A stretch of 64,000 nt of DNA from Dehalococcoidia bacterium (GTDB lineage: Bacteria; Chloroflexota; Dehalococcoidia; Lucifugimonadales; Australimonadaceae). A program made the position numbers and the translations under genes. This document shows positions 2,407 to 47,268 of this stretch, piece by piece (position 1 is the first letter of the stretch; the number at the start of each line of letters is the position of its first letter). The stretch covers positions 129,726 to 193,725 of the forward strand of contig CBDCOP010000004.1 in NCBI GenBank assembly GCA_965219845.1, read 5' to 3'. A model generated the notes under the pieces. That model saw only the letters and a program-made list of their open reading frames with translations, ran no database searches and had not been told where the DNA came from.

Positions 2407-3684
2407 ATGGCAAGAGTGCGAGGACGGGTGACAACAAAAACCGGGGCAGACGTGCAACTGGACACGAGCGATGAGCATCCCGCGTTGACGCCCGTGATGC
2501 GGCGGGTGGCAGGGGGGTACTGGGAGATCGTGAGGGCCAGGGCGGCAGAGCAGGCGCTCCCCATCGTCAGAGCGTGGCTGTGGCCATACCTAGACGTCGA
2601 AGGCACCTATGTCGTGTTCCTCGTCGTACACTTGGACGCCTTTGCCGAACGGGTGTCCGCATTCCACCACGGCCTCAACCCCGACCGCAGACACTGGTAC
2701 GCTCAACTCGACGCTGAAGACCAGAAAGCGAGTTTGCGGCTGGCGCTGACGCCGGTAGGGATCCGTGGCAGAGAAGCATCCGCCATGGCGCTTGACGGTG
2801 CGTCAATGAACCGTATTGATCTGGCAGACAATCTCAACGTCCTGCCCTGTATCGGAGATGGAGCGGCATCACTCATCTACATTGACCCTCCTTTCAATAC
2901 GGGCAAGGTGCAACGCCGTGAACGCCTGCGGACAGTACATGACGAGGAAGCAGGTGATCGCTCAGGCTTTCAAGGCCGCAGGTACCGCACGGCCAAACTT
3001 GGCGCTCTTGCCTTTCCCGATGTGTTCGAGGATTTTCTGGAGTTCATCAAGCCTCGGCTGGAACATGCTTACCGCATCCTCTCGCCAAGCGGATCTTTCT
3101 TCCTGCATATCGACTACCGAGAAGTCCACTACTGCAAAGTGCTCCTGGATTCCATCTTCGGCCACGAATGCTTCATGAACGAAATTGTCTGGGCATACGA
3201 CTATGGCGGACGACCGAAAGACCGATGGCCAGCCAAGCACGATACCCTGCTCTGGTACGTGAAAAACCCACGCTGCTATACGTTCAACTATGAGGCAATC
3301 GACCGTATTCCATACATGGCGCCTGGGCTAGTGGGACCAGAGAAGGCAGCCAGAGGCAAGACGCCAACCGACGTATGGTGGCAAACCATCGTTCCTACAA
3401 ATGGGCGGGAGCGGACAGGCTATCCAACGCAGAAACCACTCCCTATCCTAGAACGCATCGTGAAGGTGCATTCCAACCCGGGCGACTTGGTGCTGGATTT
3501 CTTCGCAGGCTCAGGTACTACAGGAGAGGCGGCAGCTCGCAATGGAAGGCGATTCTGGCTTATCGACAGCAGCCCTGACGCTGCTCGCGTTATGGCAAGA
3601 CGCCTCGCTTTCAGTAATCCAGAGTGCGTGGGATTTAGCCCTGAACATATAAACTCTCAGGCATCCTTGAAAGGGATTCTATGA
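2407..3684 (+). CDS. site-specific DNA methyltransferase, beta-class N4/N6 (PF01555-like)
   Basis: Carries 'IYIDPPFNTG' (DPPF catalytic motif), then 'YPTQKP' and 'DFFAGSGTT' (AdoMet site). GC drops after about 2790, so the real start may be ATG 2785 or 2806. The 126-aa N-terminal extension is of uncertain status. Confidence 0.85.
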   Translation: MARVRGRVTTKTGADVQLDTSDEHPALTPVMRRVAGGYWEIVRARAAEQALPIVRAWLWPYLDVEGTYVVFLVVHLDAFAERVSAFHHGLNPDRRHWYAQLDAEDQKASLRLALTPVGIRGREASAMALDGASMNRIDLADNLNVLPCIGDGAASLIYIDPPFNTGKVQRRERLRTVHDEEAGDRSGFQGRRYRTAKLGALAFPDVFEDFLEFIKPRLEHAYRILSPSGSFFLHIDYREVHYCKVLLDSIFGHECFMNEIVWAYDYGGRPKDRWPAKHDTLLWYVKNPRCYTFNYEAIDRIPYMAPGLVGPEKAARGKTPTDVWWQTIVPTNGRERTGYPTQKPLPILERIVKVHSNPGDLVLDFFAGSGTTGEAAARNGRRFWLIDSSPDAARVMARRLAFSNPECVGFSPEHINSQASLKGIL

Positions 3685-4232
3685 CACGGCGCCACATCCA
3701 AGACCCTGAAGTTCAATGGCTAGCAGCCATCGCTGCATCGATTGAGCCCGATTACACATCTGAAGAAGACGAATGGTTAGCAAGTCCGTTCGGTTGGATA
3801 AAACAAAAGCCATCACGTACAGTCGGAAAAATCTTTGAGCAACTAGTGGCTGGTTGGTGTGCTGCTAAAGAATTTGATGTGACTGCCCCACCAAACTCGG
3901 ATTCCGACAGAGTAATCGGTGGGCTCAGAGCTGAAATCAAGGGCTCCACTCTATGGAAGGGTGGTGGGCTCAAGTTCCAGCAGATACGAGATCAAGAGTA
4001 TGACATCGTAATCTGCCTAGGCATACATCCCTTCGACGCCCAATGCTGGATAATTCCGAAGAGTGTATTGATGCAACATCCCGAAGGAGTTGTTTCTCAA
4101 CACGGAGGACAAGCTGGTACGGACACTGCATGGCTTGGCTTCAGCGCAGACAATCCGCCACGATGGCTGAGTCAGTGGGGAGGAAGACTCTCGGACGCGC
4201 ACCAAGTCCTACGCAACCTTACCGGTAGTTGA
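3681..4232 (+). CDS. putative type II restriction endonuclease (PD-(D/E)xK-like)
   Basis: 183-aa ORF whose ATG overlaps the methylase stop (ATGA). 'SDRVIGGLRAEIKGS' gives D-x8-E-x-K. One 60-nt line I counted is 43% GC. Confidence 0.5.
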   Translation: MTRRHIQDPEVQWLAAIAASIEPDYTSEEDEWLASPFGWIKQKPSRTVGKIFEQLVAGWCAAKEFDVTAPPNSDSDRVIGGLRAEIKGSTLWKGGGLKFQQIRDQEYDIVICLGIHPFDAQCWIIPKSVLMQHPEGVVSQHGGQAGTDTAWLGFSADNPPRWLSQWGGRLSDAHQVLRNLTGS

Positions 4233-10828: not shown

Positions 10829-11488
10829 TCAGTCGCCTCTTCCGGGTTCAGGCGCCATCTCAGCCAAGCCCCACGACTCCCACTCCGCCGACTGCCGGCG
10901 CGCGAACAATTCTATCTTCCGCTGGTGGGGAAACATCCGCTCGATACGGTTGCGGACTTCTTCCGGTTTCGCGGAGTGCGGGCCGCGCGGTGCGCTCACG
11001 AGCTGGCGGACGTTCCTCGCGCCGCGGGGCTGCGGAATGGCGCCGCGCTTGAACACGAGGCAGAGTTCACACTGGCTCAGCGTGTAGAAGCCGGGGTTGA
11101 CGCGCTCCTTGTCCCAGACGAAGGCAACAGTCGCCCACGCGAAGCCCCACGCCTTCCCCAGGTCGATCGCCTGGTCCAAGTGCGGGTTCGTCGCCCACAG
11201 GAACAGCAGGCTGTCGTCCGCCGCGATGCCCGGCACGTCCAGTTGCTTCAGGTCGTCCAGCGTCACGGTAGGGTAGTGGCGCTCCGCGCCGCCCGTGTCC
11301 CCGCTGCCGGGTCCGGCGTGCTGCAACTGTCCCTTGTAGTCCCAGGGCGGGTCCGCGTAGATGATGTCGTAGACGCCGGTGGGCAGCGGCGGGAACTTTC
11401 CTTCGCCGGCACCGGTTTCGTAGGCGGAGTGAGCCTGCGGAAGAGACGCTCCTGCGGGCCGTTTACGCCTGGCCTGCGCGATGGTCAT
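10829..11488 (-). CDS. MT-A70 family adenine methyltransferase
   Basis: 'YDIIYADPPWDY' carries the DPPW catalytic motif. 'LLFLWATN' and 'WDK..' segments are typical of MT-A70. Confidence 0.85.
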   Translation of the reverse strand: MTIAQARRKRPAGASLPQAHSAYETGAGEGKFPPLPTGVYDIIYADPPWDYKGQLQHAGPGSGDTGGAERHYPTVTLDDLKQLDVPGIAADDSLLFLWATNPHLDQAIDLGKAWGFAWATVAFVWDKERVNPGFYTLSQCELCLVFKRGAIPQPRGARNVRQLVSAPRGPHSAKPEEVRNRIERMFPHQRKIELFARRQSAEWESWGLAEMAPEPGRGD

Positions 11489-11549: not shown

Positions 11550-13067
11550 CTATCCCTCGAATACGAGCGACTTCACCACCACCGGGATCGCCTCCACCGA
11601 TTCCAGCTGCTCGCCAAGATCAATGAAGTTGAACTCGCCGACGTTGATGCCGTCCACGACGATGACTTCCTGCTCAACCTTGAACTCGTTCTTGAGCATG
11701 GCCCCGACGAGGCCTGCGACGTCCGCGCTCAGCACGATCGTCCAGACATGGTCGTGGAACGGCGCGAGTGCGCTCGCTATCCCGCTGCACATCGCCTTGA
11801 TCGAGTCGTAGGTGGGGATCACCGGCCCGATCACCGCCAACGCTATGTGCTTACCGATGTCATCCTGGGCGATGTCCAGCCGCTCGAAACTCTGCGCTAT
11901 CGCCTCGTCCACCGTCTCGCGGGTCAGGTCGTTGGGGTCGTCCGGGAGGTACGCCGGCACGACCTGCAGGTCGAGGTACGGCAGCAGCTCCGGCTTCGAC
12001 ACGAACACCGTGCTGGACGACACCTGCACCGTGTACTGCGATGCGCCGATCACGGTCGCACGGATGCGCTCCGCGCTTCCGGCCAGCGGGATGCCGAGCG
12101 ACGGCAACCGCCGCCGCACTGCCGCGCCCAGCAGCGGCCCCATGTCGCCGTAGTCCTGCTGGTCGTAGTCGTAGACGTACTCCGCGACGCCGCCGGAGAA
12201 GCCGATCTCGTCTATCGGCCCGTCGAACGCGATCGGCCCTGAGATGAGCAGGTCCGTCGCGAGCTGTGAGTACTCGCTGCGGGTGAGCACCTCGAAGAGC
12301 AGGTCGGCCAGCTTCTCGGCCACCTTCTCCTTCTCATCTTCCTCCATGCGCTTGCCGACCTCGACCTCCACGCCGACGCTGTGGGCTATGGTGCGCCCCG
12401 CCTCCTCGACGCGCTCCACGACGCTGCCAGCGTCCCACGCGATGAGGCGCGCGCCGACATTGATGGTCATCGTTTCCGGGACCTTGCCGTTCTGGACGAT
12501 GGCGACCTTCGTGGTGCCGCCGCCCATATCCACGTTCATGCCTGCCCCGATCTTGAGGGAACGCGCAACCGCGCCGGAGCCGTGCGCGCCAAGGATGCCC
12601 TCCAGATTCGGCCCGGCGGTCGCGCAGACGAAACGCCCGCCTGCCGCAGCCAGCATCCGGATGATCGCTTCGGAGTTGTGCTTCCGCACGGCCTCGCCGG
12701 TGCAAATGACCGCGCCGGTGTCGATGTCGTCCGCCTCCAGTTCGGCTTCCGCGTAGCTCTGCTTCACGAACTCGCCGAGCGAGCCGGTGTCTATCGTGTC
12801 GGGGTCGGAGTAGGGGGTCAGGAGGATGGGCGAGCGGTAGAGCACCTGGCGGAACACCACCTCGAACTCGCTGGACATCTCCGTGCTGCGCCGCCGCATC
12901 ACCAGCTTGGAGAACATCAGGTGCGAGGTGGAGGAACCGATGTCGATGCCCACGCTCGTGAGCCGCAGCCAGTCCGGGTTTATGGGGAATCCGTCTTCCG
13001 CGATGGAACCGAAGACGACCTCGTCCTCAGCGCCGTAATGTCCGTGCTCCCAGGGATCGTCGTGCAT
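11550..13067 (-). CDS. EutA-family (ethanolamine ammonia-lyase reactivase-like) ASKHA ATPase
   Basis: Start at Met20. 'SVGIDIGSSTSHLMFSKL', 'NVDMGGGTTKVAIV' and the C-terminal 'IDLG...IPVVVKSLVF' parallel E. coli EutA as I recall it. Confidence 0.75.
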   Translation of the reverse strand: MHDDPWEHGHYGAEDEVVFGSIAEDGFPINPDWLRLTSVGIDIGSSTSHLMFSKLVMRRRSTEMSSEFEVVFRQVLYRSPILLTPYSDPDTIDTGSLGEFVKQSYAEAELEADDIDTGAVICTGEAVRKHNSEAIIRMLAAAGGRFVCATAGPNLEGILGAHGSGAVARSLKIGAGMNVDMGGGTTKVAIVQNGKVPETMTINVGARLIAWDAGSVVERVEEAGRTIAHSVGVEVEVGKRMEEDEKEKVAEKLADLLFEVLTRSEYSQLATDLLISGPIAFDGPIDEIGFSGGVAEYVYDYDQQDYGDMGPLLGAAVRRRLPSLGIPLAGSAERIRATVIGASQYTVQVSSSTVFVSKPELLPYLDLQVVPAYLPDDPNDLTRETVDEAIAQSFERLDIAQDDIGKHIALAVIGPVIPTYDSIKAMCSGIASALAPFHDHVWTIVLSADVAGLVGAMLKNEFKVEQEVIVVDGINVGEFNFIDLGEQLESVEAIPVVVKSLVFEG

Positions 13068-13213
13068 GAGCCGCCTTTCGGATATCGGAAAGCGCGGGCA
13101 TCCGCGTGTGCCGAAACGGGGCACAACCCGCAGTCAACCGCCGCGCATCCGGAGATGCGCTCAATCTTATTCCTGCACGCGTCCGGCGGCAAGACGAGCG
13201 CCCTACCTGCTCC

Positions 13214-14437
13214 TCAGAAGATGCGCCACCACGGCGCCGCGAGCACGTCCGGCGCGACCCACTCCGCTGCGTTGCCCGTGTGCAACAACAAACCGGAACG
13301 CGCATTGTCCCGGTACTCCCGCCGGAAGGTGCGCAGGTGCGTCGTATCCCTGAAGTGCGGCCTGCCGGACGCCTTGACCTCGATGGGCAGCAGGCTGTCG
13401 CCTGCCTCGATCACGAAATCCACCTCCTCCCCGAGCGTCGTGCGCCAATACAACACCTCGGCGCGGTTGCTCTCCGAGTCCCGCCACACGAGCAGGTCCT
13501 GCAGAACGAGGTTCTCCAGGTGCTCCCCCCGAGGCTCGGTCTCCTGCGCAATGTGCATCGCCACTCCTACGTCGCCCCAGTACAGTTTCGGCGATTTGAT
13601 GAGCCGCTTCGTGCGGTTGACGGAGTAAGGAGCAACGCGTACAAGCAGATAGGAGGTCTCCAGCAGGTTCAGGTAGCGGTGGGCTGTCGGCTGAGAGAGC
13701 GCCGCGTCCCGCCCGATTCCGGACTGGTTCGTCATCTGGCCGACGCGGAGGCTCGCGGCGCGCATCACGCGCCGGAAGTCGGGCAGGGCAGCTATGGAAG
13801 CGATGTCCTGCAGGTCGCGCTCCAGGTACGTTTGCACGTATCCATCGAACCAAATGGCCCGTTCCCGGTGCGAAGCGAGACTGATGGCGGGAGTGGGGAA
13901 TCCCCCGCGCCGCGCCAGCTCTCGCCAGTCCTCCGGTTCATCCGGTTGTGCATTGACGATTTCGAGCCATTCATCGTCGCGCGCCGCCAGCAGGTCGCTC
14001 CATATCCCGGCGCGGCCCATGCCTCGTTGCTCGCGGCGCGTCATCGGCCAGAGCGTCAGGTAGCTCGCCCTGCCTGCGAGTGATTCGGAGACCTTGTGCA
14101 TCAGCAACAGGTTGGCCGAACCCGTGAGCAGGAACCGCCCCGGTTCGCGGTTCCGGTCGACCTCTTGCTTCAGTGCGTGCAGCAGGCCGGGAGCGCGCTG
14201 TATCTCGTCTATCGTCAGCGGTACACTCTCTTCCAGGAGAGATTCGGGCTCATTGTTGGCCATGTCCAGGGCTGTGTTCTCGTCGAGGGAAAGGTAGCGC
14301 CTCCCGCCTGGCGTGAGGTCGCGGGTCAGTACCGTCTTGCCCGTTTGGCGCGCGCCGGTCACCACCACCGCAGGCATCACGCGGAGGCGCTCGGCGAGGC
14401 TCGCCGTAACGGAGCGGTGCAGCACGACATCGTCCAT
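13214..14437 (-). CDS. AAA+ ATPase with C-terminal DUF4143 domain
   Basis: Walker A 'VTGARQTGKT'. A later 'YLLVRVAPYSVNRTKRLIKSPKLYWGDVG' is a DUF4143 pattern. The start is uncertain: in-frame ATGs at 14437, 14461 and 14476 all lie inside the repeat array. Confidence 0.8.
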   Translation of the reverse strand: MDDVVLHRSVTASLAERLRVMPAVVVTGARQTGKTVLTRDLTPGGRRYLSLDENTALDMANNEPESLLEESVPLTIDEIQRAPGLLHALKQEVDRNREPGRFLLTGSANLLLMHKVSESLAGRASYLTLWPMTRREQRGMGRAGIWSDLLAARDDEWLEIVNAQPDEPEDWRELARRGGFPTPAISLASHRERAIWFDGYVQTYLERDLQDIASIAALPDFRRVMRAASLRVGQMTNQSGIGRDAALSQPTAHRYLNLLETSYLLVRVAPYSVNRTKRLIKSPKLYWGDVGVAMHIAQETEPRGEHLENLVLQDLLVWRDSESNRAEVLYWRTTLGEEVDFVIEAGDSLLPIEVKASGRPHFRDTTHLRTFRREYRDNARSGLLLHTGNAAEWVAPDVLAAPWWRIF

Positions 14438-14439
14438 AG

Positions 14440-14549
14440 GTGAATGATAATCATTCAGCATGTGAATGACAATCATTCTCTGCGTGAATAGATTTCATTC
14501 TCTGCGTGAATAGATTTCATGCACTGCGTGAATAGATTGCATGGAGCAG
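14440..14549. promoter_or_regulatory. five tandem 22-bp operator-like repeats (GTGAAT-N6-CATTC) with a Fur-box-like core
   Basis: TGAAT begins at 14441, 14463, 14485, 14507 and 14529, an exact 22-bp phase. Unit 1 contains the 8-1-8 palindrome TGAATGAT-A-ATCATTCA. Confidence 0.5.
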
Positions 14550-14610: not shown

Positions 14611-14639
14611 TTGACGCCCAACCCGCCCGATAGTACAAA
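14611..14639 (+). promoter_or_regulatory. candidate sigma-70-type promoter for the bicupin gene
   Basis: TTGACG (14611-14616), a 17-nt spacer, then TACAAA (14634-14639). It lies about 55 nt upstream of ATG 14693. Confidence 0.3.
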
Positions 14640-24415: not shown

Positions 24416-25298
24416 ATGGTAATCACAGCATCTCCGATTCCGGCAGTGAACGTGGCCGCAGTGCCGCAGCGCAGCCCATTGCGTTACCCTGGCGGTAAGA
24501 CGTGGCTCATTCCTCATATACGTGTCTGGCTCCGTTCCATAGAACGGCCTCGGTTGCTCATTGAGCCGTTCGCAGGCGGCGGCATCGTCTCACTCACAGC
24601 GGTCATGGAGAACCTCGCCGACGAATCACTGATGGCAGAACTCGACGAAGACGTGGCGGCCCTGTGGAAGGCAGCCTTGCACCACAGTTCGGAACTGGCA
24701 GACCGAGTACGCGAGTTCACACCAACACGCGAGTCAGTTGATCAGCTCTCCCGTCTACACCCTGCGGATGTCGTGGAGCACGGCTTCCGAACGTTGGTCC
24801 TAAACCGTACACAGCGCGGAGGCGTCCTCGCGCACGGGGCGTCCTTCACCCGATACGGGGAAAACGGGGCAGGGCTTGCGGTCGCGCTGGTACCCTGACA
24901 CCCTCATCCGTCGACTGCGCGCTATTGCCGAGTACGCATGCCGCATCACCTTCCACGAGACAGACGGTATGCAGATGCTTGCCTCGCTGCTCGACCAGCC
25001 CCATGACGACGTGGCGTTGTTCATTGACCCGCCATACACGGGAGACGGGGGAAAACGCGCAGGGAGACGCCTCTACGCGCACAACGGCGTTAATCACGCC
25101 CGCCTCTTTTCGATGCTCGCAGAAAGCAGTGCAAACTTCCTGATGACCTATGACCGCTCTCTCGAAATCGAGTCTTTGATTGAGTCATACGGGTTTCAAG
25201 CCGTCCAAGTAGTGATGAAGAATGGGCACCACGCCTTACTGCCGGAGCTTGTGATTACTCGATACCCGGCCTTCTCAAAGGGACTTACTCTTGCCTGA
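24416..25298 (+). pseudogene. Dam-like (D12 class) N6-adenine DNA methyltransferase, frameshifted
   Basis: 'PLRYPGGK' and 'EPFAGGG' lie in frame 1 (24416..24898). 'RSRWYP' and 'FIDPPYTG' lie in the ORF 24876..25298. One extra base at about 24876-24879 would join 'GENGAGL' to 'RSRWYP'. Confidence 0.7.
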
Positions 25299-26163
25299 GC
25301 GCTATGGCATCGCTGAGTGGTACGGGCAGCCGCTCTTGGGGCTCTCTCCATCCCAACGCCGCGATTTGGCATTGGTGGCTTCCAGAGGAGGAGATGAGAT
25401 TCCGCCGTGCCCCTTCAAGCAGAACGAACCTACCTGCAGCAAGAAGGGCGGGGTCTGCTCCCTGCGGCGCTACGCGCAAAGCGAAGACGGGCGGCTTGGC
25501 GAACCTGTCGGTGAACCCGTTATCGTCTGTCCCGCGAGGTTCGAGGAAGAGCGCTTACTCGTCTTCTGGTTGGCTGAGATTGTCGGATTCGCACCTGCGG
25601 ATGCACTAGTGGCCCGTGAGATTCCATTCATGCAGGGAACCAAAACGAACAAGCCGGCCGGAAAGATTGACTTGGTCGTTGCCAAGACCTCCAACGGGGG
25701 CATCCTGTGGCATGGGCTGGAGATTCAGGCAGTTTACTTCTCAGGGAAGGGAATGGAGTCTGAATTTCGTTCCTTGCAGGACGACACACACGAAACGCCT
25801 TCGTTCCCAACGGCAACCCGTCGCCCCGATTGGCGTTCATCCAGCGCCAAGCGACTGATGCCCCAGTTGTAGATCAAAGCGCCGACGCTACGCCGGTGGG
25901 GTTCCAAGCTTGCCGTCGCGGTAGACCGCCCGTTCTTTGAATCGGTTGGAGGTCCCAGTCCAAACCCAAGCCATGACCTCAATGATGGAGACATCATCTG
26001 GATGGTGCCTGAGCTCGTCGGAGATGGACGACGCCATCACTTGTCCCGCGGGCACTGGGAAGTGCTAACCTTGGAAGCTTCTAACGAGAAACTCCTTGCA
26101 GCGTCTACCATCCAACGCGAATTGTTCGAACGAACCCTCCTATCGAAACTGGAGCCTGTCTAA
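25291..26163 (+). pseudogene. NotI-family-like restriction endonuclease with an in-frame TAG
   Basis: 'IAEWYG', 'CPF..(7)..C.KKGGVCS', 'VCPARF' and 'LEIQAVYFSG' resemble NotI as I recall it. A TAG at 25870-25872 is followed by 96 further sense codons in the same frame, ending at TAA 26161-26163. Confidence 0.6.
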
Positions 26164-30229: not shown

Positions 30230-31132
30230 ATGCACTTCACGAAACTCCAGGGCGCGGGCAACGACTACATCTTCGTCGACGGCCTGAACGAGCAGCGCGA
30301 CTGGCCGGAGATGGCGCGGCGGGTGTCCGACCGGCACTTCGGCATCGGCGCGGACGGCCTCATCGTCGTCGCGCCGTCGGAGCGCGCCCCGGTGCGGATG
30401 TGGATGTTCAACGTCGACGGCTCCGAGGGCGAGATGTGCGGCAACGGCATCCGCTGCTTCGCCAAGTTCGTGCTGGAGAGAGGCATGGTTCCCGCCAACG
30501 GCAGCACGCTGGACGTGGAGACCGGCGCCGGCGTGTTGAGCATCGCTCCCCACTGGAGCGATGACCGTGTCGTCGGCGCACGCGTGAACATGGGAGAACC
30601 CATCCTCCGCGCCGCGGACGTGCCGGTCGACGTCTCGAAGATGGGCCCCAGCGACTACTCCGCGCTGGACGCCGGCCTCGTCGAATCGCTTGGACTACGG
30701 CCCGGCGAGCTGGCGTTCGATGCGCCGGTCGAGGTGAACGGCATTACGTTCGTGCTCACTGCGGTCTCGATGGGTAACCCGCACGTAACGGCCTTCATCG
30801 ATGAGCCGGTGAACAGCGTGGAACTGGACAGGGTCGGGCCTCGCATGGAACACCACGAGGCGTACCCGCGCCGGATCAACTTCCACCTCACGAACGTCGT
30901 TGCGCGTGACCACCTCATCTCGCGGACGTGGGAGCGCGGCTCCGGCCTGACGCTCGCATGCGGAACGGGCGTGAGCGCGATCGTAGTCGCAGCGCGCCTC
31001 CACGGGCTCGTGGACGACGAGGTGCGCGTGGACGTGCCCGGCGGCGAACTCACGATCGCCTGGCCGGGCCACGGCCCCGTGTTCATGGACGGCGACGCGG
31101 TCGAGGTCTTCTCCGGCGAGTGGCCGGACTGA
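30230..31132 (+). CDS. dapF: diaminopimelate epimerase
   Basis: 'FTKLQGAGNDYIFVD', 'GEMCGNGIRC' and 'LACGTG' match the two-cysteine DapF pattern. Confidence 0.9.
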   Translation: MHFTKLQGAGNDYIFVDGLNEQRDWPEMARRVSDRHFGIGADGLIVVAPSERAPVRMWMFNVDGSEGEMCGNGIRCFAKFVLERGMVPANGSTLDVETGAGVLSIAPHWSDDRVVGARVNMGEPILRAADVPVDVSKMGPSDYSALDAGLVESLGLRPGELAFDAPVEVNGITFVLTAVSMGNPHVTAFIDEPVNSVELDRVGPRMEHHEAYPRRINFHLTNVVARDHLISRTWERGSGLTLACGTGVSAIVVAARLHGLVDDEVRVDVPGGELTIAWPGHGPVFMDGDAVEVFSGEWPD

Positions 31133-31141
31133 GGCTGCATA

Positions 31142-31744
31142 GTGCACGTAGCAATCCAAGTCCGCATAGACAACCTCAACGCAGAGCAGATTGTGGCCTG
31201 CCTAAGGGATGCTTTCACGGATGCAGTTCCGATAGAGCAGGCCAGAGAAAACAGCAGTGTCCTGAATGCTGGTCAGAAGTCGGCCTCTACAATCAAGTAC
31301 GCCTGCCGTCCAACCAATGAGTCAATAGCGCTGTTCTCAATGCCGGGTGGGGGAATGGTCGGGTGCGTCCTGGAGTTCGTTTACTCATCGAACGAGACGC
31401 TGCTTGCCTTGACAGAATACACAGTCGACGTCATCGAGCGGCAAGTAAAGCGCAGTAGAGGCAAGTTCCATTTCTTGAAGGCCCGACTCGAAGACGTAAG
31501 TTCTCTGGGAACAGCGGTCGAGGGCACACCCTTACATTGGTTCAACCGCGTTCGCATGCACGTTGCGCAGCGCGACCTGCTGAATAAACTAGTGGTGGTT
31601 ACAACACTGGTAGGGATTGGTTCTTTCATGACCGACCTGAAAGCAGGCGCGGTGCTTGCAGGGGTTGGCGTAGCTGTGTCCCTGGCAGTGTCACTCGCTC
31701 AAGCGGCTTGGGAGCGACGCAGAGTCGAATGGAGGATCAGATGA
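31142..31744 (+). CDS. hypothetical protein with C-terminal transmembrane segment(s)
   Basis: GTG start 10 nt after the dapF stop. About 145 aa are soluble and unrecognised, followed by 'LVVVTTLVGIGSFM' and 'AVLAGVGVAVSLAVSLAQAAW'. Lower GC. Confidence 0.5.
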   Translation: MHVAIQVRIDNLNAEQIVACLRDAFTDAVPIEQARENSSVLNAGQKSASTIKYACRPTNESIALFSMPGGGMVGCVLEFVYSSNETLLALTEYTVDVIERQVKRSRGKFHFLKARLEDVSSLGTAVEGTPLHWFNRVRMHVAQRDLLNKLVVVTTLVGIGSFMTDLKAGAVLAGVGVAVSLAVSLAQAAWERRRVEWRIR

Positions 31745-32148
31745 ACCTACAAAAAGGGCTAGTGCATGAGCGCGCCGTGACTCAAAGCCTAGCAGAGTAC
31801 TTCAGAGCAGGCGGCTTTGAAGTGGCCAAGGAGGAGCGCTTACCTTGGGGAGGCCGAGCTGACCTCCTCGTCTACCTGCCGCATAACCGCATTCTGCTCT
31901 TCGAGGTCAAGACTGGCACGAAGGGTGATTACTTGGACATGCTCACCACGTTCGCGCGGATTGAAGGATACAAGGACAGGGTCAAATACGCGCACCCGGA
32001 TGCAGAAGTGACGGAAGCTGTCGTCACGAACATGATTGTCGGAGAGAATCTAGCTGATTTCTTTGACAAATCAGGAGTGCACATCGTCCGGATTCAAGAT
32101 GAGAACGATAGCCTAGAGGCTAAACTCGCCCCGCTGCTGTCAGCGTAG
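31741..32148 (+). CDS. small PD-(D/E)xK nuclease-fold protein (YraN/Hjc-like)
   Basis: ATG 31741 follows GGAGG and overlaps the upstream stop (ATGA). 'HERAV...GGRADLLVYLPHNRILLFEVKTG' gives E..D-x13-E-x-K. Confidence 0.55.
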   Translation: MNLQKGLVHERAVTQSLAEYFRAGGFEVAKEERLPWGGRADLLVYLPHNRILLFEVKTGTKGDYLDMLTTFARIEGYKDRVKYAHPDAEVTEAVVTNMIVGENLADFFDKSGVHIVRIQDENDSLEAKLAPLLSA

Positions 32149-36649: not shown

Positions 36650-37156
36650 ATGCCTCCCAAACGCAAAAAGAAGAGACAGCCGGAGCAGCAACGGCCCGGC
36701 CAGCCCCGCATCCGAACCGTCGCGGACAACCGGCGAGCGCGCTTCGATTACGACATCCTCGATCGCATCGAGGCCGGCATAGTGTTGACCGGCACGGAGA
36801 TCAAGTCCGTGCGTGACGCACGGGTCGCCATCCGCGACGCCTACGCGCAGGCGCGCAACGGCGAGATGTGGCTGCACAACATGCACGTCGCCGCGTGGAC
36901 GAGCGCAGGTCCGTGGGGACACGAGCCGACACGCTCCCGGAAGCTGCTGATGCACGCGCGTGAGATAGACCGGTTCAGCCGTGCGGCGGGCCAACGCGGC
37001 CTGACGATGATCCCGTTGCGTGTGTACATCAAGGGACACCACGCAAAGGTGGAACTGGCCCTGGCGAAAGGCCGGCGGCACTACGACAAACGGCAGGCCA
37101 TCATGCGACGCGAGTCGGACCGGGAGATAGCACGCGCTCTCCGTCGCGAGGACTGA
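36650..37156 (+). CDS. smpB: SsrA-binding protein
   Basis: 'NRRARFDYDILDRIEAGIVLTGTEIKS', 'KLLMHAREI' and 'YDKRQAIMRRESDRE' are present. Confidence 0.9.
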   Translation: MPPKRKKKRQPEQQRPGQPRIRTVADNRRARFDYDILDRIEAGIVLTGTEIKSVRDARVAIRDAYAQARNGEMWLHNMHVAAWTSAGPWGHEPTRSRKLLMHAREIDRFSRAAGQRGLTMIPLRVYIKGHHAKVELALAKGRRHYDKRQAIMRRESDREIARALRRED

Positions 37157-37223: not shown

Positions 37224-37573
37224 GGGGATGCGTGGTTTCGACAGGGGATCAGCTTGGCAGGATTGCAGGCCGAGTTCGCCGCCTACTCGCTAATCAGACG
37301 GCAAAACATCAACTGCCGACGAACCAGTCGCACTGGCTGCCTAACAACGTAGCCACGCCCCGATAGCCCACTCCGGCGGCTACCGGAAGCGCCATACAGC
37401 CGGGGTGCAGTGGCTCTGACGCCGCTGCGAGCCACTCAAGACTTCGCGGCAGGTGGCGGGACGGCCCGCCGGTGGGCCCACCCAGTCACCGAACAAAACG
37501 CCGGCTAAGCCTGTAGTACATCCGCGCTGAGCGTCTTCTGGACGGGGAGTTCGACTCTCCCCCATCTCCACCA
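37224..37573 (+). ncRNA. ssrA: transfer-messenger RNA (tmRNA)
   Basis: The 5' GGGGATGCGTGGTTTCGACAGGGG and the 3' GGACGGGGAGTTCGACTCTCCCCCATCTCCACCA form a tRNA-Ala-like acceptor with a G3:U pair. The tag frame 37315-37344 reads ADEPVALAA-stop. It lies directly downstream of smpB. Confidence 0.9.
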
Positions 37574-47191: not shown

Positions 47192-47268
47192 GCCCCAGTA
47201 GCTCAGTAGGATAGAGCGGCTGCCTTCTAAGCAGCGGGTCACGGGTTCGAATCCTGTCTGGGGCACCA
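47192..47268 (+). tRNA. tRNA-Arg (anticodon TCT)
   Basis: Acceptor stem GCCCCAG/CTGGGGC, D stem GCTC/GAGC, anticodon stem GCTGC/GCAGC with loop CT-TCT-AA, T arm ACGGG-TTCGAAT-CCTGT, and an encoded CCA. Confidence 0.9.

Follow-up and report, generated by a model that had tools for sequence, protein, structure and literature searches.

A phased array of palindromic repeats spans the predicted promoter of a DUF4143 ATPase-nuclease gene and may serve as an operator for the gene's own product

The Rep initiators of iteron-containing theta plasmids, such as R6K pi, pPS10 RepA, RK2 TrfA, and P1 RepA, are autoregulated, bind DNA through winged helices, and have sites that overlap their own promoter. 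Leaderless repressor genes are known from mobile elements, including lambda cI and Tn1721 tetR, in which the start codon follows the -10 hexamer by 6-7 nt without a Shine-Dalgarno sequence and the gene resides on a horizontally moving unit. Archaeal Orc1/Cdc6 proteins (PDB 2qby) combine an AAA+ core with a following winged helix and have repeated origin recognition boxes beside their own gene, and the classical Fur box (GATAATGATAATCATTATC), an AT-rich and palindromic operator, has GATAAT hexamers as its building blocks. Operator arrays of such a kind are known, but their attachment to PDC-S01, a major uncharacterized family of putative defense proteins, is not described in the searchable literature, in which we also found no description of upstream repeats or autoregulation for DUF4143 or PDC-S01. 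PDC-S01 (AAA_14 + DUF4143) is reported to rank fourth in abundance among the defense candidates of all prokaryotes, ~39,000 genes having been detected, and still awaits experimental validation (PMC12988326). The DUF4143 domain has been classed as PD-(D/E)xK (Steczkiewicz et al., 2012; PMC3424549). Expression of a Thermus member of the family, TT_P0211, is up 6.6-fold when a plasmid and Argonaute are both present (PMC4406477), which indicates only that the expression of such genes can change.

Here we analyze a member of this family and its upstream DNA in a 64,000-nucleotide stretch of a Dehalococcoidia genome, which we refer to as the window. The gene, its predicted promoter, and the repeats that precede it are arranged as follows (positions are those of the window):

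13214..14437, minus strand: ATPase-nuclease gene (407 aa), with an AAA_14 ATPase, a winged helix-turn-helix, and a C-terminal PD-(D/E)xK nuclease fold (DUF4143)
14435..14437, minus strand: start codon ATG of the ATPase, placed by the alignment of orthologs from residue 1; putative start of a leaderless mRNA
14441..14457, no strand assigned: unit 1, the proximal box, a perfect palindrome, TGAATGATAATCATTCA
14444..14449, minus strand: -10 hexamer TATCAT, in unit 1, from a promoter scan
14463..14479, no strand assigned: unit 2, TGAATGACAATCATTCT, carrying the -35 of the predicted ATPase promoter
14467..14472, minus strand: -35 hexamer TTGTCA, in unit 2, from a promoter scan; the difference between unit 2 and unit 1 is kept in the genus
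14485..14501, no strand assigned: unit 3, TGAATAGATTTCATTCT
14507..14523, no strand assigned: unit 4, TGAATAGATTTCATGCA, a recent duplicate of unit 3
14529..14545, no strand assigned: unit 5, a distal half unit, TGAATAGATTGCATGGA, whose only conserved arm is the ATPase-proximal one

A preliminary description of this DNA claimed five units with an exact 22-bp period in 14440-14549. This was borne out by TRF, which found a 22-bp period at 14440-14536 (4.4 copies) and at 14473-14543 (3.2 copies, 93% matches), and by the motif GTGAAT-N6-CAT, which was named in the same description and which recurs with 0 mismatches at 14440, 14462, 14484, 14506, and 14528 and at no other position within the 64-kb window. 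Unit 1 is, as had been proposed, a perfect 8-1-8 palindrome (TGAATGAT-A-ATCATTCA at 14441-14457), with a single-strand fold at z = -5.8 versus shuffles. Each unit is laid out as a 17-bp palindrome with arms TGAAT and ATTCA and a 5-bp variable spacer (on the minus strand, 5' to 3', TGAAT-N7-ATTCA(C) and ~5 variable bases), and because of this layout the half-sites are spaced alternately by 12 and 10 bp on one helix face. When the units are compared with each other, unit 5 keeps only the arm on the ATPase side (ATTCAC on the ATPase strand). These features support the earlier suggestion of an operator-like array, in which phased, palindromic sites would be presented on one face of the helix. Across eight arrays from the genus and its relatives, the arms hold 0.9-1.8 bits per position and the spacers 0.15-0.57. 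The number of units is five here, compared with four in five genus orthologs and in L007 and three in L010; the fifth unit is explained by a recent duplication of unit 3 together with its spacer, given the high TRF match rate and the sister genomes having one unit fewer. When G000 is compared with G017 or G004, nucleotide identity is 84% in the array, 70-74% in the gene, and 47-69% in the DNA beyond the array, and we therefore conclude that this non-coding DNA is under purifying selection. A GC-rich palindrome just past the array was considered as a structural element and rejected, its fold being no better than that of shuffles (z = 0.8 here, -0.2 in G017).

The two units closest to the gene supply the elements of a promoter. 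An independent promoter scan identified TTGTCA-17-TATCAT on the ATPase strand (14472..14444; 10/12 matches), in which the -35 comes from unit 2 and the -10 from unit 1. The array thus contains the -35 and the -10 of the ATPase gene, in agreement with the proposal that it controls this gene. In minus-strand reading, unit 2 is always GATTGTCATTC and unit 1 is always GATTATCATTC, or GACTATCATTC in one array (eight arrays; L010 has diverged), and the G/A difference between unit 2 (GATTGTC) and unit 1 (GATTATC) is preserved in all genus orthologs. The -10 hexamer ends 6 nt from the ATG at 14437, and no Shine-Dalgarno sequence precedes this ATG, whereas the neighboring bicupin gene has GGAGGA. The close -10 and the absence of a Shine-Dalgarno sequence imply a leaderless ATPase mRNA, and transcription should therefore begin at the A of the ATG at 14437. 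Among 84 family loci, TANNNT hexamers show a sharp peak at -13/-12 relative to the start codon (43 loci; background ~1 per position) and 6 loci have a Shine-Dalgarno-like motif, which together suggest that the leaderless design is family-wide.

The start codon itself required some correction of the preliminary description, in which all three candidate ATGs were read as the CAT of a repeat. This holds only for 14476, which uses the core CAT of a unit, whereas the ATGs at 14437 and 14461 fall within the 5-bp spacers, with their phase unchanged. Of the three, 14437 is the true start, from which orthologs of many phyla align from residue 1. An alternative in which a longer ATPase is encoded across the repeats did not hold up: the homologs start at residue 1, the open frames beyond 14437 extend only 13-19 codons further, and the 22-bp period shifts the reading frame from unit to unit. 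The repeats are non-coding.

Compared with the systems described above, the array resembles iterons in that phased direct repeats of ~22 bp adjoin the gene of the presumed binder, which would likewise contact DNA through a winged helix, and appear to overlap its promoter, as expected for autorepression. Unlike iteron initiators, the ATPase (AAA_14 + DUF4143) has no Rep domain, we see no sign of an origin, and the array locus is chromosomal and syntenic with genomes that lack the cassette. Most relatives, moreover, carry only ~1.5-2 units, and the long array is therefore a local elaboration. An iteron-type origin was rejected because no Rep gene is adjacent and because the locus is a chromosomal indel between conserved genes. 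We also rejected a transposon end of the Tn7 or Mu type, as there is no inverted array at the other end (in the window, or downstream in 48 loci) and no target duplication. The resemblance to lambda cI and Tn1721 tetR lies in the short distance from the -10 to the start codon, the lack of a Shine-Dalgarno sequence, and the horizontal movement of the gene; unlike these genes, the ATPase gene has a leaderless start that is deduced from sequence only, and its product is an ATPase-nuclease and not a simple repressor.

The array and the ATPase gene come and go together. The ATPase is present in only 16 of 61 related genomes, and in eight sister genomes (G001, G003, G005, G013, G014, G018, G019, and G020) the EutA-like gene is followed directly by an intact bicupin promoter (TTCCTTGACGC...GATAGTACAAAG), with neither the ATPase gene nor TGAAT repeats in the intergenic DNA. 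Conversely, the repeats are present in all six genomes (6/6) that have the ATPase at the EutA-bicupin locus. Since the repeats are absent where the ATPase is absent while the bicupin promoter is kept, the array belongs to the ATPase cassette. The same comparison bears on the bicupin gene, which had been considered as another target of the array. Its promoter, TTGACG-17-TACAAA, was confirmed at 14611-14639, 66 nt past the last unit, but control of this gene by the array is not supported, since the eight sister genomes keep the promoter intact without ATPase and repeats. At the EutA-bicupin locus of G017 (L011 / L032), the ATPase is 66% identical to that of the window, the adjacent bicupin 95%, and the array ~84%, which indicates that the protein has either evolved very rapidly or been replaced by a diverged allele. 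Next to the cassette in the window are genes for a stand-alone EutA-family ATPase (11550-13124) and an MT-A70-family methyltransferase (10829-11488), with no ethanolamine lyase genes nearby.

Outside the genus, relatives were sampled as one genome per species (80 loci). ATPase relatives that are 50-71% identical come from more than 10 phyla and carry the same 17-bp palindrome, TGAATGATTATCATTCA; they include Dehalococcoidia, Latescibacterota, Binatia, Acidimicrobiia, Acidobacteriota, Gemmatimonadota, Planctomycetota, Methylomirabilia, Thermotoga, Alpha-, Beta-, and Gammaproteobacteria, and others. Allowing up to 3 mismatches, the palindrome is found in 41 of 48 loci with the same recognition-helix type, 20-21 nt before the start codon in nearly all of them, and outside that position it has one match in 238 kb of flanking DNA of the 48 loci. 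This off-position match lies ~58 nt after the ATPase stop in L090, with 2 mismatches. No flanking gene is common to the clade loci outside two syntenic groups. In 10 distant genomes of 3.3-6.2 Mb, TGAATGA-N3-TCATTCA (7-3-7) occurs exactly once per genome, at the ATPase. The cross-phyla consensus reads ATTCAC-N4-TGAATGATTATCATTCA-N5-(A/G)TGAA, so that the half-sites cover the -35, the -10, and the start codon. In this comparison the arms hold 1.3-2.0 bits and the -35 hexamer at most 0.8 bits, and promoter elements alone therefore do not explain the conservation. TRF detected tandem arrays upstream of the gene in 16 of 84 non-redundant loci, but in none of 79 downstream regions and within none of 84 genes; twelve loci have a period of 22 bp and two a period of 23 bp. 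The locus studied here has a clade-specific repeated box that abuts the start codon and contains the -10. One ATPase sub-clade has a single box, CGTGAATGACTATCATTG (L006, L008, L009, L017, L019, L020, L055, and L056); it lies inside a larger repeated element with ~250 bp of common upstream DNA, which is found in several genera and in several copies per genome (three in G028).

The protein encoded behind the array matches AAA_14 (1.7e-24) and DUF4143 (1.1e-36) of Pfam, both above cut-offs, and is a clear member of PDC-S01, with a full-length match to the PADLOC candidate model PDLC04790 (E = 4.7e-109 over residues 4-404). Among 73 sequences, G28 and K34 (Walker A), D77 and E78 (Walker B), D340, and K355 are invariant, and E353 is nearly so. 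An AlphaFold2 model built from the 73-sequence alignment (pLDDT 92.3, pTM 0.93) shows an AAA+ core, a winged helix-turn-helix, and a C-terminal alpha/beta domain with D340...E353-x-K355. In this model the winged helix-turn-helix consists of helices 218-229, 238-244, and 249-261, followed by a beta wing, and the recognition helix corresponds to residues 249-261 (...SQPTAHRYLNLL...). No solved relatives were found by sequence. The fold matches include the Pyrococcus Walker-type ATPase 2qen, Orc1/Cdc6 on origin DNA, RuvB, and clamp-loader subunits, all with low TM-scores; 2qby_B is among the best (E = 4.4e-5, TM-scores of 0.26-0.28). Like Orc1/Cdc6, the ATPase has an AAA+ core and then a winged helix, with repeated boxes beside its own gene; unlike Orc1/Cdc6, it carries a PD-(D/E)xK nuclease as an additional domain at the C-terminus, its gene is not in the context of a replication origin, and the boxes cover the promoter and the start codon. 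The only paralog of the ATPase in the genome (C6:539337-540134, 33% identity) looks degraded, with an N-terminal frameshift and truncation at ~265 aa, and is preceded by a 17-bp inverted repeat, GAGAACCATGCAGATTG...CAATCTGCATGGTTTCTC.

Other ATPase clades carry different repeats at the same place, and each of these goes with a different recognition helix:

helix SHPTAHRY, box GTGAAATGATTTATTTCAC
helix PRTTVQRH, box GCGATAATCGCC
helix SRPTIGDY, box TTGCAATTGGAC
helix xSTLKRY, box TGGTTGAAATTCAACCA
helix D.KTAARY, box ATTCCGATATTTACG
helix THNTAKEW, box GGACAAATTGTAAAT

In G056, two ATPase paralogs have two different arrays. Box similarity correlates with recognition-helix identity when the rest of the protein is taken into account (partial Mantel r = 0.21, p = 0.001), a modest correlation in which co-variation between a gene and its adjacent cis-element is partly expected from co-inheritance and to which start-codon calls add noise.

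We propose that the winged helix of the ATPase binds the array and represses the gene's own promoter, a reading that we consider probable, although with clear reservations. The ATPase is the likely binder because, housekeeping factors aside, it is the only protein that always accompanies the box, and because its recognition helix changes with the box. Support also comes from the structural model, with its high-confidence AAA+, winged helix-turn-helix, and nuclease domains and best fold matches that include AAA+/winged-helix proteins such as Orc1/Cdc6. According to this proposal, the array would be the cognate cis-site of the adjoining AAA+ ATPase-nuclease, whose winged helix would bind the palindromes as dimers or as higher AAA+ oligomers. 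Binding would spread cooperatively over three to five phased units and occlude RNA polymerase, so that the protein would keep its own nuclease, which is potentially toxic, at a low and fixed level; in this genus, cooperativity would be increased by the additional upstream units. Gene and site would then form a self-contained cassette that needs only a sigma-70-type RNA polymerase from its host, and the lack of any further host-specific need fits the spread of the cassette across phyla. A leaderless mRNA needs no Shine-Dalgarno match and a self-operator needs no host regulator, both of which would suit a gene that moves between phyla. Three observations qualify the proposal. Long arrays are not general, as most members of the clade have only ~1.5-2 units; a second 7-3-7 copy lies at a TetR-family gene in this genome, and another regulator may therefore cross-bind here; in addition, an orphan array persists without the gene, so the sites could be doing something other than autoregulation. 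A box that is private, position-locked, and shared across phyla is a first concrete handle on what a PDC-S01 protein recognizes and on its restraint, and the locus offers natural comparisons: filled and empty sites in one genus, arrays of 1.5 to 5 units, an orphan array without a gene, and a period of 22 bp as opposed to 23 bp.

Several other readings of the array have to be weighed. In one of these, which goes beyond a repressor site, the array would act as a docking strip where the ATPase-nuclease is assembled, in register, into an AAA+ oligomer that is inactive; release from, or titration of, this address by invading DNA would arm the nuclease and at once derepress the gene. A few positions of the recognition helix (248, 252-254) would suffice for each clade to read its own box, and the orphan arrays would be extra addresses or scars of cassette turnover. 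We regard this scheme as unlikely; if it were true, PDC-S01 would be a huge family of sequence-programmable ATPase-nucleases, each with a 'self' address. Somewhat more doubtful is the idea that the array is a homing, integration, or excision site for the PD-(D/E)xK nuclease or for a recombinase, either instead of or besides an operator, the latter being compatible with autoregulation. Such a role would agree with the patchy distribution of the gene among the relatives and the indel at the EutA-bicupin locus, with the wide spread across phyla and the several copies in G028, with the divergence of the G017 ATPase next to a conserved bicupin, and with gene-less orphan arrays that look like scars. 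However, no inverted or second box is present at the other end of the gene (48 loci) or elsewhere in the window, comparison of filled and empty sites shows no target-site duplication at the junctions, and a box that is fixed in place over the -10 and the start codon speaks for a role in transcription. The array could also be a portable strong promoter (UP-like, -35, and -10) whose repeats arose by slippage and which has no dedicated binding protein. While units 2 and 1 do form a 10/12 sigma-70 promoter and this genome acquired its additional unit by a recent duplication, we judge this explanation improbable, since conservation is higher in the parts of the arms that fall outside the hexamers (TGAATG, and TCA downstream of the -10) than in the -35 itself, units 3-5 are not part of the promoter and yet have arms that are conserved across species while their spacers vary, and each clade places a different palindromic box around a similar -10.

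Binding by a host regulator would be a further explanation, for which two candidates come into view. One is the TetR-family protein at C8:36444-37136, whose own promoter carries TGAATGA-ACC-TCATTCA, with the same 7-nt arms as unit 1 and a chance expectation of 0.003 per genome. This promoter (C8:36408-36444, L136; palindrome at C8:36417) reads TTGACA-AATGAATGAACCTCATT-CATTAT, and the palindrome is probably the TetR protein's own operator. We nevertheless consider a regulator of this type a very improbable binder of the array: no second site exists in the ten distant genomes or in five of the six sister genomes with the cassette, and the second copy in G011 sits in a relic array and not at a regulator gene. 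A TetR-type regulator thus cannot explain the conserved box and would at most account for local cross-talk. The other candidate, put forward in the preliminary description, is a Fur/Zur-family repressor, by which a host metal sensor would bind the palindromes and bring the ATPase, the bicupin, or both under metal control. The likeness behind this idea is real: the 19-mer of the E. coli Fur box matches at 14 of 19 positions at 14440, the 13-nt core AATGATAATCATT is identical in unit 1 (13/13 at 14443) and nearly so in unit 2 (12/13), and the genome encodes four Fur-family proteins. Units 3-5, however, do not match the Fur-box consensus, and other clades likewise lack Fur likeness in their boxes. 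When the whole genome was searched for the palindrome, the E. coli 19-mer, the Bacillus 7-1-7, and an actinobacterial Zur box, the matches were the array itself, one orphan copy, and chance-level matches inside genes, and no TGAATGATAATCATTCA-like or Fur-box-like site was found before any metal gene in the 3.54-Mb genome. Two of the Fur-family genes (C7:875444 and C7:894351; L051 and L054) share a different upstream motif, TTATTGATACAA(A/T)GTATTGACAA, which is unlike the array and is a candidate for the Fur-family operator of this organism. Furthermore, the box travels with the ATPase through more than 10 phyla, once per genome in the ten distant genomes checked; it is tied to the adjacent gene rather than to a host regulator and is absent from empty sites, and the sister genomes without the array keep the bicupin promoter. 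We therefore give the Fur/Zur reading hardly any credence, the least of those considered. In summary, the array is like the classical Fur box in the identical 13-nt core of unit 1 and in being a palindromic AT-rich operator on GATAAT hexamers, and unlike it in having no regulon or metal-gene link and in being private to the ATPase cassette. The resemblance can be explained by a palindromic operator that wraps a TATCAT/GATAAT -10, much like the GATAAT-based Fur box, and it serves as a warning for annotation that an AT-rich palindrome surrounding a -10 can be identical to a Fur box over 13 nt and still belong to no metal regulon.

The orphan array mentioned above (2.5-3 units, C1:178195-178245, L135) lies in a convergent intergenic region without an ATPase gene and has orthologous sites in G021 (L149) and G011 (L150). 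G011 and G021 have it intact, G006 and G003 have a single half-site left, and G014 lacks it; in G000 it is adjoined by a HicB-like gene. It resembles what would remain of a cassette copy that has been lost. Elsewhere in the window, the tmRNA gene (37224-37573; 135 bits) comes directly after smpB (36650-37156), and a tRNA-Arg(TCT) is located at 47192-47268; the search for RNA families in the window returned nothing beyond this tmRNA and one tRNA. Three 1-kb stretches (3001-4000, 25001-26000, and 31001-32000) have a lower G+C content (0.53-0.58, compared with ~0.65) and are possibly acquired DNA.
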